Assembly (NCBI GenBank): GCA_021807125.1 | Contig: JAKAPK010000001.1 | Span: forward strand, 251,079 to 315,078 | Source of the DNA: Nanobdellota archaeon | GTDB taxonomy: Archaea; Nanobdellota; Nanobdellia; Parvarchaeales; Parvarchaeaceae | Direction of reading: 5' to 3' | Length of the DNA: 64,000 nucleotides | Shown: piece by piece, positions 3,313 through 45,700 of the stretch | How the letters are laid out: the number at the start of each line of letters is the position of its first letter | How positions within the stretch are numbered: the stretch's first letter is position 1 | Notes under the pieces: model-generated | Told to the model about the DNA's origin: nothing | The model's input: only the letters and a program-made list of their open reading frames with translations | The model's database searches: none | Position numbers and translations under genes: made by a program

Positions 3313-6300
3313 ATGGACGAGAGTGAAATAAAAAACCTTGAAAAGAAGATAGATTCTGATTACTCAAAACTCGGCAGCGAAATAAAGAAGGAAGAAAAAT
3401 TAGTTGAAAAGGAGATAGAAAAGACGCATGCTGAAAAAACGGCGATAACGGAAATAGAGCTTGAAATAAACGCCGAAAGTATAAAGCGTTTCGGTAGAGT
3501 ATTGTATGATATATTCATAGCTAAAAAGGTACTTTTTTATGTCATTTTGGCACTGGCGGTCATAATCGGTTTTGAGATAAGAATCGCCAGCCTTCCCGCA
3601 CTCGGTGCATCACCTCTAATAGGCAATAATTATCTTAACGTAGGCGGTTCTCTGTCAGGTTTGGACCCATATATATTCTATATAGAAGCTGTAAACATAC
3701 TCCATTTCGGTAATGTGCCGCTTACCGAGCACTTAGAATATTTACCCATAGGTTATCCTGCTAGAGTAGATAGGTACGTAGTTTCTTTCTTTGGCGCGTA
3801 TGCGTATAATCTGCTGCATTTTATAGAACCATCGGCGACTTTGATGACGTGGTTTATGGTGATACCGCCGTTTACTGCGATATTTATGACGATATTGTTA
3901 TTTTTTATAATACTGGAATTGTTTAATGATTACTGGGCCGCCTCTATAGGAGCGCTAATGTTCCCCGCGTTCCAGACTCTACTTAGTCGTGCAGTGGCCG
4001 GTTTTTCAGACAAAGAGATGATAGGTTTCATGTTTATGCTTTTAGCCATCTTAATGATTATAAAACTCATAAAGAGCAAGAATGTTAGTTCTAAAGTCGT
4101 CTTTGGTTTCATGCTAGCTCTTGCTACAGGATTAACTGGCGCCTCGACAGGTTATGTGCAGTATCTTGCTCTTGGTATACCTGCAGTGTTTATCGCTCTT
4201 ATAATGTTGGATTTCGCAAAAAAAGGGGATCTATACGCGTTCCTGCCATTTGGGCTATGGATTCTATTTACAGAAAGTATGGTCTATCAGCCAATCAGCT
4301 CGCTACTTACTAATATAATATATTTACCCACTTATTTTGTTTATTTATTGATTTTGTTTAAATTGTTTGTATACGACAAATACAAGTCAAAGCTAAAGAT
4401 TCCTTTTGTTGGACATGGAGTCTCTTTAGTCGTCTACAGCGGACTCGTGGCTATAGGGCTACTTGGAGTTACAGGACTTAACCGTCTGTTTAACATATTT
4501 TCCACTATAGTGTCTGAAATCGCTTATCCTCTTGGTATAGGACAACCTAATCCCGTGTCATTGACCGTTGCGGAATATGCCCCACAGACCCTCGCACAAA
4601 GAATATGCGATTATAACTTCTTCTTAGGCTCATGCGGAGACCCAAATACCATAGGCCTGAATTTGATTTTATTTTACGGAGGAATGTTCTTCTTATTATA
4701 CCTTATAGCAAAAAGATTTAAACACGGAAATGCGCTGTACCTTTTCGCACTGCCTATAATTATGCTGCTAAATGGAGGTACGTTCACGCCTGGAAACGGC
4801 TCAAATTCGCTTGTAGCACTATTTTCCTTCGCAGCTCTTTTACCGTTGGTTGATTGGGCAATAAACAGGAAAAAATCACAGCGAAAAATTTCAGTATCCA
4901 TATTATTGGTGTTAATACTGGTTTCTATGATATTATCAGTGTCGTTTTCAGGTATAAACCAGACAACTAATTATTACAAATACGCAGCCATAGCATTTGC
5001 AGTGCTTATTCTTATTTGGGCCGCGTTCGATAAACTGGAAGACGATGCACAAAACAAGCCCATATATCTTGTGATGCTTATATTTTTCGTATTGACGATG
5101 GCCCTTTCAAACCTTGAAACATGGCTCATACAAATAACCGAATTAATAGCGGCAGTATTGATACCGTTTGCGATAGTATTTATGACACGTTCTGGCGTTA
5201 CACTATCTAGAATGCTATTTAAGAAGCATGGATACGTGCTATTTGCAGGCGCCATAATAATCCTAGCAATTGCTTTCGTTGCTTACGATCTTTACACCAG
5301 TCTTAATTACTCTTATGCTGTGGCACAGAGCAGCGGGAGCGGCCTAGCACTCTGGGGGCCTTCGCTTCTTTGGGTAAATCAGAATACACCTTATAATTCA
5401 ACGCTGATATCGTGGTGGGATTACGGTTATTGGGAAGAAGCAATAGGAAACCGTACAACGGTTGCTGATGGAAGCAACGCATTCGGTTATCAGTCTATGA
5501 TAGCAAAATACTTCTTTGAAGCTACCTCGCCTTATCAATATGCTACATACCTGAATTTCGTGCATCAGCCCACTTATGCAGTTATAAGCGGGAGTGAAGT
5601 ACTGAAGTTTTCTGCTATATCGACTATAGCGCTCAATTACACCCAGTTTACTCCTATGACACAATCACCTAGCTCTGCACTCAATACGCAGAACATAGGA
5701 AACAAGAGCTACAAATACTTGGCTATTTTTGGAGGTAACAACGCAGGGATAGGTCCTGTAGAACAAAATATGGTGGTCAATGGAGAACCGTGGAACTCTT
5801 CTGAAACGTTATTGGTAAATGTATTGATACCGTTCAATTATACGAACGGTACATACGTTGAAGGACCACCTTATGGCGTGGTTTATAACCCACTTACTCA
5901 ACAGCTGTCAAACGCATTACCGATTAATAATTACTGTGTGTACGGCTCGGGATGCGTGAATGAGAGTAATAGTGGCATACCTGGAGCGATAATGCTTCTT
6001 AATGGTACAGACACCCCTGTATTGCATATAGGCGGTTATTCTCAATTCCCGGGAGGGTACGCTACCGCTCCGATTAACATGCAGGCCTACGGAAATTCAC
6101 CGTCGCTACTGTACATGCCACAGAAATCGCTTAACACGTTGTTTGTTAAATTATACCTTCTAAATGAAACGGTTCCTGGATTCAAGCTTGTTTTCACTGA
6201 TAATCTGCCAGCAGATTCTCTTCTCAGCATTGAGAACCAAGTGCTTACCAACATAAACATCTATCAGATTAACTACACAGCGCTTCAAAAATACATGCTA

Positions 6301-6411
6301 ACGGGACAATGTTCGATAGATACATCGGCACAGAACTATTGTGCAAACCTGAATTATTTACCAGGAGTATACTTTAACAATACGCAGCTCATTTCTGGTA
6401 CGCCGATATGA
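3313..6411 (+). CDS. aglB: Oligosaccharyltransferase AglB (STT3)
   Basis: 'DPY' near the N-terminus, 'GFSDKE', 'TVAEY', WWDYG motif, many TM segments. Confidence 0.95.
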   Translation: MDESEIKNLEKKIDSDYSKLGSEIKKEEKLVEKEIEKTHAEKTAITEIELEINAESIKRFGRVLYDIFIAKKVLFYVILALAVIIGFEIRIASLPALGASPLIGNNYLNVGGSLSGLDPYIFYIEAVNILHFGNVPLTEHLEYLPIGYPARVDRYVVSFFGAYAYNLLHFIEPSATLMTWFMVIPPFTAIFMTILLFFIILELFNDYWAASIGALMFPAFQTLLSRAVAGFSDKEMIGFMFMLLAILMIIKLIKSKNVSSKVVFGFMLALATGLTGASTGYVQYLALGIPAVFIALIMLDFAKKGDLYAFLPFGLWILFTESMVYQPISSLLTNIIYLPTYFVYLLILFKLFVYDKYKSKLKIPFVGHGVSLVVYSGLVAIGLLGVTGLNRLFNIFSTIVSEIAYPLGIGQPNPVSLTVAEYAPQTLAQRICDYNFFLGSCGDPNTIGLNLILFYGGMFFLLYLIAKRFKHGNALYLFALPIIMLLNGGTFTPGNGSNSLVALFSFAALLPLVDWAINRKKSQRKISVSILLVLILVSMILSVSFSGINQTTNYYKYAAIAFAVLILIWAAFDKLEDDAQNKPIYLVMLIFFVLTMALSNLETWLIQITELIAAVLIPFAIVFMTRSGVTLSRMLFKKHGYVLFAGAIIILAIAFVAYDLYTSLNYSYAVAQSSGSGLALWGPSLLWVNQNTPYNSTLISWWDYGYWEEAIGNRTTVADGSNAFGYQSMIAKYFFEATSPYQYATYLNFVHQPTYAVISGSEVLKFSAISTIALNYTQFTPMTQSPSSALNTQNIGNKSYKYLAIFGGNNAGIGPVEQNMVVNGEPWNSSETLLVNVLIPFNYTNGTYVEGPPYGVVYNPLTQQLSNALPINNYCVYGSGCVNESNSGIPGAIMLLNGTDTPVLHIGGYSQFPGGYATAPINMQAYGNSPSLLYMPQKSLNTLFVKLYLLNETVPGFKLVFTDNLPADSLLSIENQVLTNINIYQINYTALQKYMLTGQCSIDTSAQNYCANLNYLPGVYFNNTQLISGTPI

Positions 6412-6956
6412 ACGTCATAATATCCGGACTGACGGCCTCCGGAAAATCTACACTTGCTAGAAATATAGCAGCGGATTTTAATCTTACTTATTTCTCTGCA
6501 AGTTCGAAGCTGCGTGAACTGCTTCCGCCAAAAGAATTTCAGTTTTGGGAATCAAAAAAAGGGATAGACGCGATAAAATTCAGGTTATCTCATCCGAAAT
6601 ACGATAAACTGCTGGATTCTTATATAATAAAATACATGTCTGAAAACGATAATCTGATAATAGACAGTTGGGTTGCTTCATGGAAAGTAAAAGATGATAG
6701 GACAATTAAAATATATCTTAAGGCCACGATTGAAGAACGTGCAAGAAGAGTTAGCGGAAGAGACGGAGTAGATTATAAGAACGCTCTTGATTTCATGAAA
6801 ACAAAGGACAAACTAACATCGAAGATATACAAACAAGTCTATGATATAGACGTTATAAGTGATTTGACTCCCTTTAATCTTGTGGTTGACTCGACAAAAT
6901 TGGATGCGGAAGTCCTAAAAACCGTTTGTGAAACTTTCTTACACAGCGTAAAATAA
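6408..6956 (+). CDS. cmk: Cytidylate kinase, archaeal type
   Basis: 'IIISGLTASGKST' P-loop, 'YLKATIEERARRV..RD'; upstream of cbf5 as in many archaea. Confidence 0.85.
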   Translation: MNVIISGLTASGKSTLARNIAADFNLTYFSASSKLRELLPPKEFQFWESKKGIDAIKFRLSHPKYDKLLDSYIIKYMSENDNLIIDSWVASWKVKDDRTIKIYLKATIEERARRVSGRDGVDYKNALDFMKTKDKLTSKIYKQVYDIDVISDLTPFNLVVDSTKLDAEVLKTVCETFLHSVK

Positions 6957-6986: not shown

Positions 6987-8000
6987 ATGGGTTTACCATT
7001 TGAGAACATAAAGCGCGATGTGCATGTGCTTCGTGATGAATCTACGGAAGACGGATACGGAATATACCCCGAAAAAAGGACTATATCCCAAAAGCTTGAA
7101 GGAGGATTTATACTTCTGGATAAGCCGTCCGGTATAAGGTCTAGGACCGCCGCAGAAACCGCAAAACGCATGCTGTCCTCTTTAGGCGTTAGTAAACTGG
7201 GTTACTCCGGGACCTTAGAACAATGAGGAAATCCTGCAGTTACAGGTTTATTACCGCTAACATTGAACCGCGCAAACAAAGTCGTATCTATGCTCTTATT
7301 GGGCGGTAAAGAATACGTCGGTATTATGCACCTCCACGGCGCCGTTTCGTCGGAAACGCTTGAGAAAACAATAAAATCTTTTACCGGGAAGATAACTCAG
7401 CTTCCGCCAGTAAGATCAAACGTCAAGCGCGCTCTAAGAGAAAGAGAGGTCTTCTATCTTGATATCCTTGAAGTAATGGACAAAGACGTGCTGTTTAAAA
7501 CCGGTGTTCAATCCGGTACTTATATAAGAAAATTAGTCCATGATATCGGACAAACACTAGGTACTGGCGCACACATGTCAGAATTGAGAAGAACAAAAGT
7601 ATGTTCGCTTAAAGAAAGTGACAGGCTCGTTACTCTACAGGATATAGACGATGCCGTTTTTTATTATGTCAACGAAAACGATGGCAAATTCCTAAATTAC
7701 TGCGTTCAAAACATAGAATCTGCTATTGATTTCATGCCGAAGGTATTCTTATCAGATTATGCGGTGGACACCATATGTCATGGTTCACCGGTAGCAGTTC
7801 CAGGAATAGTAAAATTCAATGATTTTTCTAAAAATGAAAAGATAGCACTATTCAGCCTTAAAGGGGAACTCGTGGCGATTGGGGATTCAATTGTGGAATC
7901 ACAAAATCTTTATGGAATGGAAAAAGGCATTGTTGTTAAAACGGATTCGGTTGTTATGCCTATAGGCACATATCCAAAATACGAACGTGAAAAGGTTTAA
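6987..8000 (+). CDS. cbf5: tRNA/rRNA pseudouridine synthase Cbf5 (TruB family), interrupted by a 12-nt intron at 7219-7230
   Basis: ORFs 6987-7226 and 7263-8000 are in the same frame. Motifs 'LDKPSG', 'GYSGTL[D]PAVTGLL', 'KEYVGIMHLH', 'GTYIRKL', C-terminal PUA domain. Removing 7219-7230 removes the TGA and rebuilds TTA-GAT-CCT (L-D-P). Confidence 0.93.
7219..7230 (+). other. Bulge-helix-bulge (BHB) intron in cbf5 pre-mRNA (AACAATGAGGAA)
   Basis: CGGGA(7208-12) pairs TCCTG(7232-36); helix CCTT(7213-16)/GAGG(7225-28); 3-nt bulges AGA(7217-19) and AAA(7229-31). Cutting after the 2nd bulge nucleotide restores the catalytic Asp codon. Confidence 0.88.
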
Positions 8001-8325: not shown

Positions 8326-8437
8326 TGGGGTCAGCCGGATTTGAACCGACGTCAAGCGCTTTCACCTTTAATCATCCTTGCGTCATTTTTCCAGTCAAGC
8401 TGGAGGCGCTTGTTCTACCGGGCTAAACTATGACCCC
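8326..8437 (-). tRNA. tRNA-Trp(CCA) with a 39-nt intron at position 37/38 (8361-8399)
   Basis: Reverse complement: GGGGTCA...AGCGC-CTCCAG^intron^A-GCGCT...GTCGG-TTCAAAT-CCGGC-TGACCCC-A; relaxed BHB (CTCC/GGTG helix). Confidence 0.92.
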
Positions 8438-19836: not shown

Positions 19837-21418
<1,582 letters not shown>

Positions 21419-42700: not shown

Positions 42701-45700
42701 ATGCCTAAATCACAATCTGCCTTAGAATATATGATGACTTATGGCTGGGCAATCCTGATAATAGTCCTTATAGCGGCGATACTTTTCTCCTTTGGTATAT
42801 TCAATCCTTCGACCAGCGTTACAAACGCCCCTCTGATAACAGGTTTCTCCGATATTCCAGTAACTACAGCGGTGGCTAATAATAGCTTCTTCAAGATAAC
42901 TCTGTCAAACCAGTATGGGCAGACAGTAAGGCTAAACAACGCAACTATGCTCTTTGGAAGCACAACGTTCACGAAAAACAACTGCACGAACATCGTGTTA
43001 ACAGCTGGACAGTACGCAAGCTGCTACGTTGAAGGAACTTTCTCAGGAAGCACGATATCCGTAGTTGGGACGATATTTTATACCATAATCGACAGCAATT
43101 TTAACACGTCTACGACAGGAACTATAAGGGTTCAGAATAGCGGCGAGCCGTTATACCCTGCAAGTGTAGCGATGTGTTCTCTTAGTTATTTACTTAATAA
43201 GACAAGTGATAATAAATCTGGAGTTAATTTAGACAATGTAAGCTGGAAGATAGCCAATGCCGGTGAATTTGCTGTAGTAATGGCTGCCAGTGGCGCTAAA
43301 TTGTTCGGTGGAAGTTTTAAGATTCCTTCTGGTTGCTATTTCGCAGAACAGAAATCTGACTCATCGAATTCAAGTATAGTCATCTGTCCTAATCAATCTC
43401 CTGGCAGTTACAGTGTGAATGTCACGAATAACGGTGATTCTGTAGCTTTAGCTGCTTACATATTCCATGGGCCTATGTGTTACTATTCTATCAACGGCAC
43501 GACAGGAGGAACTATACTAAAGTCCTCTTTGCCAGCTGGCGCCAGCCTCTATCTATGTGATGCAGCTTCAAATACTGCCTCTGATTTTCTTAATTCTTCT
43601 GTGACGGATGTGAACGCTACAAACGCTGAAATAGGCCATCAAACGGGCAATATCTGCTATGGTATAGACCCGACTATGCCGGTATTCGGACAAAGCTTAT
43701 CGTTTATAAGTCTGAATAGTAGTTTCGCTAACGTCACGACATTCTCCGAAACCGGACTGCCTTCAAATATCAAGTGGAATGTTACTTATGACGGAACACT
43801 AAAGGGTACTAAATCGCCGGCGAATATAATATTTGTTACATTACCAGGTAACTATTCATATTCTGCAACAGCTCTGAGCAACTCTTCATCAAATTGCACC
43901 TCTGTATATACTCCTTCAGCGGCTTCAGGATATGATGTCTCTGGCACGCCAAAAAGTATAATATTTTCTACTTCCACATCTTGCTCTACGACTTTCAGCG
44001 AGAGCGGGCTGCCCAGTGGCTCTCTGTGGAACGTTACCTATAGTTCTGTATATAATGCTTCTACCGCAGTAAACGTAACCGCAACTACTACCGTAGGTAT
44101 ACACAGCTTTGCGCTATACCGACAGGATGTGAACGGCTGTGTATATATACCGCTCAATTCTTCCTCACTTCAGCCCATGTTCAGCGGAAATCTGAAGGCT
44201 GGTGCTTTCCAAAAAGTGAAGTATAACCTTACTTACTGTCTTACGACCTTTGACGAATCCGGTCTTCCTTTAAGTACTATCTGGAATGTGACATTCAATG
44301 GGACATTACAGCAGTCAACGTCAACTAAAATAATATTCAATACTACTAATAGATCACTTCCCTTTTTGACTCATATCGCATACAGTGGCGGAACACCATA
44401 CTGTCAGGCGCCGGTTTCAGGAAACTTATTTGCTGGGTCTATTATTACAGTTACTTATTCGTCTACGTGTATCACGACTACTTTCACTGAAACAGGTTTG
44501 AAATCAGGTAAAATCTGGTCGGCGGTCTACGATAACGAATCAAATACTTCTTCTGATAGCGTTATAACGCTAAGATCGATACCTGGAACTTTTGCATTCA
44601 CGATACCAGCCCAATTTAATTCTTCTTCTGTTTGTGAGATGGCTTTACTTTCTTCAAACAGCTCCGGCAGACTGGTAGCAGGTTCCACAAAATCAGAAAC
44701 ATTCAATGAAACTTGTGCTATATATTCCAATGAACATATAATTGCGGGACAAAAGATAGTCTATAACTGGTCTAGTTCGGTTGTACCGGACTTGTATTAT
44801 CCAACGAATGGCATTATGTATACTGAACACCCTATAAACAGCAGCTGGCGTGAGTGGTACGAAGTAAATGGCACTTATATACAATATATATCATCACCAT
44901 TTAAACCCCCTGCTGAGTTTATTAGAACTTGCCCATCCGAGTGTCCGGCTGCGGGAGTAATCGGCACGGAAGGTTACTTCTTTGACAGTAATACTGGCTA
45001 TATCTACTCATCAAAGGGAGAGATATTCAATGGAAGCAGCACGTCGTTTCTAGGTTTTGATAACGGTTTTGGCCTGACAAAAATCCCGTATGATTTCAGC
45101 GTAATAAACAATTCGGGATATGTCTACTTACCGAACCCGAATGGACAAATATCCTTGATAAATAAAAAAACCCTGTTAACAAATATAACGGTAGGCAACT
45201 TCTCCAGGCTTTCTACTCCTTATTATGGCAATGGCGATCAATATGCTGGTGAACAAACAGGTTTGACTATGGATAATGTTAATAACTATACCTATGTTAT
45301 TGCCTTTCCTTTAAACAGGACGCTGGTGATTAGTGGTACTTCGGTAATCGCAAATCTGTCGATGATAAGGCCTTTGTATGACATAGTCGATACATTCCAT
45401 AATTATGTATATGTAATAGATGGATTAAATGGAACCAATATAGACATATTAAGCGGTACAAGTGTCATCGGGAGCTTAACTGTAGACAAAACATTGGATG
45501 TTTGTTCACCTCCTTTCTCCGCTACTAAGAGTAGCTGTATGTATTCAGCATCAAATCCAATTTATAACCCTGGCAATCACTTATTATATGTTGCCACTGA
45601 GGGAGGCTATACAAATATAATAAACGGCACGTTACTTGTAGGGAACGTATCCTCTCTAAACCCAAAAAATACAACTATAACCGGTTTAGGATATGATGCA

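Follow-up and report, generated by a model that had tools for sequence, protein, structure and literature searches.

A probable 12-nt intron of the bulge-helix-bulge type in the catalytic aspartate codon of cbf5 in a Parvarchaeum-like archaeon

Introduction

How does an archaeon with a genome of less than 1 Mb make Cbf5 if the only copy of the gene found in it carries a stop codon right at the catalytic aspartate? This question is raised by a 64,000-nt stretch of DNA from a DPANN archaeon (hereafter the window, to whose positions all coordinates refer unless a contig is named; the genome holding it is called G000 and its contigs include C3 and C7), in which the cbf5 gene at 6987-8000 (+) is interrupted by 12 nt at 7219-7230. 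These 12 nt are very probably an archaeal intron of the bulge-helix-bulge (BHB) type in cbf5 pre-mRNA, and we infer from the pattern of conservation described below that they would be spliced out.

An intron in crenarchaeal cbf5 pre-mRNA was reportedly described by Watanabe et al. in 2002 and Yoshinari et al. in 2006. According to Yokobori et al. 2009 (PMC2738675), the Desulfurococcales and Sulfolobales are established to have an intron at this very codon that the splicing endonuclease cuts. These crenarchaeal introns measure 16-44 bp and in most cases form "unconventional" BHBs, and the spliced mRNA has reportedly been obtained as cDNA; the paper also proposes a link between the intron and hetero-oligomeric (alpha-beta)2 endonucleases, infers lineage-specific loss within the Desulfurococcales (Pyrodictiaceae, Ignicoccus) and calls the cbf5 gene of N. 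equitans intron-less (PMC2738675). A 2020 review speaks of "only one example... in the cbf5 mRNA in crenarchaeota" (PMC7714728), and a 2023 text likewise confines the cbf5 intron to a small related group, the Crenarchaeota (PMC10485636). Among the papers listed by full-text searches that covered few subscription journals, we found no report of an intron in the cbf5 of DPANN, Bathyarchaeia or Asgard archaea.

Results

A stop-bearing insert splits the catalytic aspartate codon of cbf5

The cbf5 frame of the window opens at ATG 6987 and reads GYSGTLEQ-stop-GNPAVTGLLPL in translation around the interruption, where the in-frame stop is TGA 7224-7226; the identical frame then resumes and closes at TAA 7998-8000. 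Deletion of the 12 nt at 7219-7230 creates TTA GAT CCT and with it the L-D-P of the TruB/Cbf5 motif, and the alternative deletion register 7220-7231 leads to the identical product. The insert directly follows the first letter of the catalytic Asp codon, and at the corresponding site of insert-less relatives the L-D-P motif is uninterrupted. Exon 2 alone matches the NCBIfam Cbf5 equivalog NF003280 over profile positions 68-319 with 291.4 bits against a cut-off of 242. L003, an intron-less orthologue of 332 aa from a member of the genus, can be aligned with the window along residues 1-330 (63% identity), and the match includes one TGA. A search of G000 for cbf5 gave this one match and no second, intact copy.

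Without splicing, the gene can be read only into a 79-aa product that is terminated by TGA 7224-7226. This exon-1 product exists as a separate entry in a public protein collection (sources NCBI, Logan, and ENA; 3 contigs), from which it follows that annotation pipelines split cbf5. At the level of DNA, contigs from three sequencing runs of mine-drainage metagenomes (X1, X2, and X3) span 7219-7230 with zero indels; the X2 contig comprises the whole cbf5 gene with two substitutions, and the X3 contig is 510 nt long. This check is based on Logan contigs, of which those of run X1 possibly come from the source of the window itself. Independent genomes of many projects contain the insert as well. 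The initial annotation of this locus, made from the sequence alone, is therefore upheld in its basic claims: translation reproduces the frame G-T-L-E-Q-stop-G-N-P and the L-D-P obtained by removing 12 nt, the domain matches of both exons mark the gene as a genuine cbf5 (including the DKCLD domain in exon 1), the insert is present in the DNA, and standard gene callers do misread the gene by truncating it.

The insert and its flanking codons form a relaxed BHB-like motif

The minimum-energy fold of the RNA from 7200 to 7245 has -14.0 kcal/mol (z = -2.70), which 3 of 200 shuffles equaled or bettered. It features an outer stem of 5 bp including one G-U (7208-7212 with 7232-7236) and a central helix CCUU/GAGG of 4 bp (7213-7216 with 7225-7228), to which the computed fold adds the pair A7217-U7224. 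Both exons take part in this structure, since the codons GGG-ACC-TTA-G and AT-CCT pair as GGGA with UCCU in the outer stem and also provide the CCUU half of the central helix, to which the intron contributes GAGG. Two bulges of 3 nt, A7217-G7218-A7219 at the 5' splice site and A7229-A7231 (AAA) at the 3' splice site, each lie 3' of their own central-helix strand, like in pre-tRNA, and the loop between the helix strands spans 7220-7224. Because the inner part consists of nothing but ACAAU, which forms one A-U pair at most, the 5' cut site falls within the terminal loop; the computed A7217-U7224 pair likewise leaves the 5' "bulge" unclosed by an inner helix and places it in that loop. The motif is a relaxed hBH or bulge-helix-loop rather than a full hBHBh'. 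Of the BHB drawn in the initial annotation, the outer stem, the CCUU/GAGG helix, and the AAA bulge thus stand, and the minimal inner hairpin that should have closed the AGA bulge does not.

In the mechanism that we propose, the tRNA splicing endonuclease EndA would cut after base 2 of each 3-nt bulge, that is, between G7218 and A7219 and between A7230 and A7231, and the ligase RtcB would join the exons so that GAT (Asp) is recreated in an mRNA for a 333-aa Cbf5. The unspliced mRNA would give only the 79-aa fragment because the intronic helix strand itself creates the in-frame TGA. Cuts after base 2 of each bulge, as foreseen in the initial annotation, restore the Asp codon as G/AU in the window and equally in all 29 inserts of the family described below. 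If cleavage and ligation take place in this way, Cbf5 expression might be coupled to EndA activity or be put to another regulatory use. The features of the locus and of its surroundings are compiled in Table 1.

Table 1. Position of the predicted cbf5 intron, its splicing motif and other features in the window
Feature	Positions	Strand	Description
cbf5 exon 1	6987..7218	+	77 codons and G (letter 1 of the Asp codon); DKCLD domain, 30.7 bits
Relaxed bulge-helix-bulge motif	7208..7236	+	Fold and alignment pairing
Predicted 12-nt intron	7219..7230	+	1 base of bulge 1, loop ACAAU (5 nt), GAGG (3' strand of the central helix), 2 bases of bulge 2
cbf5 exon 2	7231..8000	+	AT of the Asp codon, 255 codons, TAA; TruB_N, TruB_C_2, and PUA domains
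tRNA-Trp(CCA) with 39-nt intron	8326..8437	-	Adjoins cbf5; Rfam tRNA 52.9 bits; ARAGORN C7 259403-259515, complement
Cytidylate-kinase-like gene	6408..6956	+	Upstream of cbf5; Pfam PF13189
Multi-pass membrane protein gene	3313..6411	+	1032 aa; overlaps the cytidylate-kinase-like gene by 4 nt (ATGA)
Archaeal 16S rRNA gene	19866..21362	+	Complete; 1378.9 bits

Insert, pairing, and codon choice are conserved together within the family

The order to which the window belongs consists of one family with 40 species genomes, in 39 of which cbf5 was found. In 29 of these 39 genes, the Asp codon is split after its first letter by an insert, which was checked at the level of sequence in each case. Within the window's genus, it occurs in 24 of 33 genes and is always 12 nt long, while four of the five genes of a second (sister) genus have a frame-shifting insert of 16 nt that forms a full hBHBh' with an inner stem of 3 bp, and the sole genome with a cbf5 match in a third genus has 15 nt containing TAA (1/1). 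The 12-nt forms contain TGA, and the insert of one genome (G042) even holds two stops, TAA and TGA. Outside the insert, we found no stop or frameshift in either exon of the insert-bearing family genes.

The central helix varies among these genes in a way that preserves its pairing, with CCUU/GAGG in the window, CUUU/GAAG in the other 23 of the genus, and CUUU/AAAG or CCUU/AAGG as further variants. For an analysis of covariation, we aligned 31 sequences that had been found via protein homology, 20 of them distinct. All 20 distinct sequences have a paired central helix, with pair 8-28 being UA in 16 and CG in 4 sequences and pair 10-26 being UG in 16 and UA in 4; the four proximal pairs of the outer stem are formed in at least 95% of the sequences, the fifth in only 3 of 20. 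When the 3' partner strand was shifted along the alignment as a control, overall pairing fell from 89.7% to 34-60%. The observed covariation score was reached by none of 500 shuffles, a control that is inflated by the relatedness of the sequences. In L037, the nearest relative of the window in the gene tree, the variable helix pair has the U-A form, so that the C-G of the window is a two-sided change within the genus. By comparison, the 5-nt loop of the 12-nt forms keeps its first A and last U, and the three bases in the middle vary among species.

The exon codons that take part in the motif follow the presence of the insert. The Gly codon is GGG in 29 of 29 insert-bearing genes of the family compared to none of the 10 insert-less ones (five GGT and five GGC), and the Leu codon is TTA in 29 of 29 compared to 3 of 10; in the outer stem, the third G of the Gly codon pairs with the first C of the Pro codon. 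These patterns of pairing, loop and synonymous sites are as expected of a selected RNA structure; neither a pseudogene nor an artefact nor an insert that is translated would be expected to show them. The comparison of cbf5 across relatives that the initial annotation had suggested as a check revealed inserts at the same codon with compensatory changes in the helix, not random indels.

A quick single-gene tree of exon-2 proteins (50 rows) recovers the family as monophyletic with 97% SH-aLRT and places the insert-bearing third genus at its base. The nine insert-less genes of the window's genus form one weakly supported clade (81% SH-aLRT), and the insert-less gene of the sister genus stands apart from them. 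With two changes as the smallest number within the family, this one gene tree fits an intron that was probably present in the family ancestor and has been lost at least twice; given the 81% SH-aLRT of the insert-less clade, "two losses" is a minimum count and not a demonstrated history.

Inserts at the same codon are widespread among archaea

We scanned 185,579 species genomes with a nucleotide pattern that combines the exon context with a purine-rich 3' helix strand and obtained at least 120 stretches, of which at least 117 are archaeal and 3 are bacterial chance matches among the matches listed. Translation confirmed the Cbf5 context in 79 of the first 80 stretches, and the remainder were checked via a tree of exon 2. 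By record title, Bathyarchaeia or Bathyarchaeota contribute most loci (at least 68), accompanied by Desulfurococcales-type (at least 11) and Sulfolobales-type (at least 4) records, Woesearchaeota (at least 11), "Nanoarchaeota" (at least 4), Parvarchaeota or Parvarchaeum (at least 2), Aenigmatarchaeota (at least 2), unspecified Thermoproteota (at least 5), Calditenuaceae of the Aigarchaeota (at least 2), and an unspecified archaeon (at least 2), as well as at least one locus each from Heimdallarchaeota, Borrarchaeum, Nezhaarchaeales, Methanomethylicota, Nitrososphaerota, and a Methanosarcinales-labelled record. Among the matches listed, archaeal inserts are 12-40 nt long, and the nine of 12 nt are Parvarchaeum-like except for two titled Aenigmatarchaeota. 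Longer inserts form an inner helix, which the pattern does not force, out of very different sequences. However, the pattern does force GGG and a Y opposite R in three pairs of the central helix, which means that helix pairing is partly built into the loci found in this way and that the covariation rests on the 31 sequences from protein homology.

The window's class was sampled with 401 genomes, and cbf5 was found in 389 of them. Here the pattern matches 41 genomes and a reversed-pattern control none; 29 of the 41 belong to the window's family of 40, the other 12 to at least 9 families among the remaining 361 genomes, with inserts down to 13-14 nt. A 19-nt insert next to a GGA codon for Gly (G103) was found by protein search only, and since the pattern misses such variants, the counts are to be read as minimum values. 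Other families of the class have inserts of 13-14 nt in this codon of cbf5, at G192:C29:28789-28827, G120:C15:30456-30494, and G368:C46:3242-3281, which indicates that miniaturized introns are a general DPANN trait and not one of Parvarchaeum only.

In a large tree of exon 2, of which only the topology was used and from which 7 of 139 rows had been dropped (exon 2 shorter than 180 aa or no match), a DPANN-like cluster of 39 rows is set apart from a cluster of TACK and Asgard sequences with 93 rows. The host genes thus follow taxonomy, which makes a transfer of cbf5 from Crenarchaeota unlikely. In the Cbf5 tree, the named records closest to the window's gene bear the titles Parvarchaeota, Ca. 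Parvarchaeum or Nanoarchaeota, in agreement with the DPANN-like host assumed at first. Inserts at this site are widespread in public archaeal genomes and thus peculiar neither to G000 nor to DPANN.

Some individual loci deserve mention. The two records titled Aenigmatarchaeota with a 12-nt insert (L130 and L163) share the central helix CCUU/GAGG with the window, although the tree places their Cbf5 at a great distance from the window's family; the likeness goes back either to common ancestry or to convergence on a single minimal solution. The Cbf5 of L087, titled Methanosarcinales, falls inside the DPANN-like group beside Woesearchaeota-titled genes, and its 5-kb contig may be mis-binned. Stops in cbf5 were also seen away from the Asp codon, in L046 (G214) and L050 (G321) with an intact GTLDP and in L048 (G136) and L049 (G028) at places other than the Asp codon, with the motif regex not finding the site; all of these could be errors, other introns or real breaks. 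For G026, one search gave one TGA in the cbf5 match and another search none. Second matches in genomes of family f22 (G065 and G079) represent weak PUA-domain paralogues (E 1e-4 to 1e-6) and no split cbf5.

The genome encodes one splicing endonuclease and the ligase

G000 encodes one EndA of 172 aa (C7 24143-24658, minus strand) with N-terminal and catalytic domains (PF01974, 97.5 bits; TIGR00324, 111.8 bits against a cut-off of 59.6) and RtcB (497.5 bits). A search of G000 with E values up to 10 turned up no second EndA-like gene, and three insert-bearing genomes of the genus that are 92-98% complete have a single EndA match each. The EndA of G000 is co-linear with the alpha4 chain 1a79 of M. 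jannaschii (residues 10-171 versus 10-170) and is without the residues that are inserted near the catalytic His in the N. equitans alpha subunit (3iey_A) and the ARMAN-2 enzyme (4fz2). According to PMC5829648, only endonucleases of the (alpha-beta)2 and epsilon2 types with inserted "specific loops" cut relaxed motifs, and the "L3" loop of DPANN enzymes is missing in Ca. Parvarchaeum acidiphilum.

With introns allowed, ARAGORN reports six intron-bearing tRNA genes in G000, whose introns include such of 14, 24, 39, and 41 nt. One of them, the tRNA-Trp(CCA) gene adjoining cbf5, may provide another substrate of these splicing enzymes within the window. For the 14-nt intron of tRNA-Asn and the 39-nt intron of tRNA-Trp, no clean 4-bp BHB helix could be placed by eye. 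A "tRNA-Pro(TGG)" with a 227-nt intron that ARAGORN calls at 43925-44243 (-), equal to C7 295003-295321, is probably false in view of 33.7% GC, poor stems, and no Rfam tRNA match. Outside the window, ARAGORN reports at C3 165268-165353 a "tRNA-Phe(AAA)" with a 12-nt intron at 33/34, for which the anticodon assignment looks wrong; its actual ends may delimit a non-canonical mini-intron that equals the one of cbf5 in size.

TGA is an ordinary stop codon in G000 and ends 105 of the 327 open frames of at least 250 codons. A genome-wide scan for mRNA introns, another suggestion of the initial annotation, looked for BHBs with 4+4 bp and an inner part of 3-45 nt whose splicing fuses two open frames, each with 70 codons or more, that are interrupted in the unspliced state. 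It returned 22,379 motif matches in G000 and flagged 196 of them. The cbf5 intron was recovered (C7 258296-258308), but the flag is far too unspecific to name other mRNA introns because adjacent genes and antisense frames also pass.

Further genes around cbf5 include a cytidylate-kinase-like gene directly upstream of it and a gene for a large membrane protein before that (Table 1). The window also contains a complete 16S rRNA gene, and 23S and 5S rRNA gave no match at threshold within the window, so that the rRNA genes appear unlinked here.

Discussion

Weighing an intron against other explanations

Could the gene simply be broken? A decaying pseudogene with a random stop-bearing insertion of 12 nt would agree with a frame interrupted by a codon that otherwise ends genes in G000, but we consider it very unlikely, as 29 genomes from three genera share the insert at an identical position, no further stop or frameshift affects either exon, exon 2 by itself exceeds the Cbf5 equivalog cut-off, and both the covariation and the constraint on exon sites are tied to the presence of the insert. 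An artefact of assembly or sequencing, for which we found no supporting point, has a practically negligible probability when contigs of runs X2 and X3 cross the site free of indels and independent genomes from many projects share the insert. The insert might instead be kept in the mRNA and be translated via stop read-through, TGA recoding or ribosomal bypassing, giving Cbf5 with four additional residues, and the 12- and 15-nt forms indeed preserve the frame. This scenario is nevertheless highly improbable: read-through would turn the catalytic Asp into E-x-x-x-N, the 16-nt form of the sister genus shifts the frame, the insert of G042 has two stops, TGA is a normal stop, and neither the paired helix nor the GGG/TTA constraint would be explained.

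A different kind of alternative accepts the motif as a processing site and proposes that EndA cuts it with the halves mostly left unjoined, which would be an mRNA-destroying switch, or that some other pair of nuclease and ligase is at work. The relaxed motif and a sole EndA of the type that the literature calls strict speak for this idea; still, it appears unlikely to us, since the exons of cbf5 are clearly conserved and no second intact copy was found in G000, so that the cell needs the joined mRNA if it needs Cbf5. Furthermore, RtcB is present, and the cut register given by the BHB rule restores the Asp codon exactly.

The interpretation as a spliced intron also has several points against it. 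The motif is without a real inner helix, with the 5' cut in a terminal loop of 8 nt (6 nt in the computed fold), and the z-score of the fold (-2.70) is modest if taken alone. A search for sequencing runs containing the sequence listed six DNA rows from metagenomes of mine drainage or mine tailings and no RNA run. Most of all, a relaxed minimal motif stands beside a single, loop-less, alpha4-like EndA, an enzyme type described as strict; this mismatch is the main reason why our confidence is not higher. G000 is only 78.6% complete, so a second EndA subunit could be unassembled, although the three genomes of 92-98% completeness likewise have one match each, and there could be a very divergent EndA beta subunit in this lineage.

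A proposed intron site templated by its codons

The 12-nt insert is a known intron site in a new superphylum and the shortest form among the inserts examined here. The sequences themselves offer a structural explanation of why the site is shared, as the codons for G-T-L-D-P can supply an outer stem GGGA...UCC(C/U) and the helix half C-N-Y-U, so that an insert needs only about 10 bases of its own. It is conceivable, and we offer it as a tentative proposal, that the intron in the Asp codon of cbf5 is either ancient and pan-archaeal or was regained repeatedly because these codons (GGG A / CNYU / .. / A / UCC) already contain one half of the central helix along with the outer stem, and that Parvarchaeum-like DPANN have trimmed it to a 12-nt bulge-helix-loop that an alpha4-type EndA without known specificity loop must cut. 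If this is true, the cleavage of the 12-nt form by a plain alpha4 EndA would contradict the rule by which an (alpha-beta)2 or epsilon2 enzyme is required for relaxed motifs, and this form is a ready minimal substrate for addressing that question. In the broader picture, a site that reviews treat as a crenarchaeal oddity appears as pan-archaeal and codon-templated, with inserts in records titled as at least 10 lineages beyond Crenarchaeota, including DPANN and Asgard.

Gene callers cut cbf5, which looks essential, at the in-frame TGA, and it is therefore likely that Cbf5 is scored as truncated, missing or pseudogenized in many metagenome-assembled genomes of DPANN, Bathyarchaeia, and others, which distorts marker-gene and "reduced genome" inventories. 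Beyond this, the inserts form a data set on the gain and loss of protein-gene introns in Archaea, on whether these track the type of endonuclease, and on the minimal RNA for an alpha4-type EndA.

Comparison with known systems

The closest known system is the crenarchaeal cbf5 intron, with which the insert shares the gene, the codon, and the phase, as anticipated in the initial annotation and borne out by PMC2738675. Both are BHB-type with relaxed motifs (there in most cases), have known or, here, predicted cuts between bulge residues 2 and 3, are too short to encode anything, and show lineage-specific loss, here in one genus subclade and one sister-genus genome. They differ in length, with 12 nt compared to 16-44 bp in the published range (PMC2738675), as had been suspected, and in the inner helix that the 12-nt form does not have. 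Here a DPANN archaeon with less than 1 Mb of genome is the host, and where that source links crenarchaeal hosts to an (alpha-beta)2 enzyme, only one alpha4-like EndA gene was found here. With the BHB introns of archaeal pre-tRNAs, which range from 11 to 175 nt according to PMC2738675, the insert shares motif geometry and, as predicted, the cut rule and the enzymes EndA and RtcB, yet its substrate is an mRNA whose helix strands in the exons are codons, so that coding and pairing constrain the same bases. The BHB intron in the HVO_1309 mRNA of Haloferax volcanii (Schwarz et al. 2020, PMC7714728) is likewise an mRNA substrate of EndA outside Crenarchaeota, which for cbf5 is a prediction; it lies in a 5' untranslated region, whereas the cbf5 insert breaks a coding frame at the catalytic codon. 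Finally, putative inserts in protein genes of an archaeal virus (Peng et al., as cited in PMC2738675) also measure 12 bp and lie within coding sequence, but their splicing was not demonstrated and they may be translated, whereas translation of the insert in cbf5 would abolish the active site.

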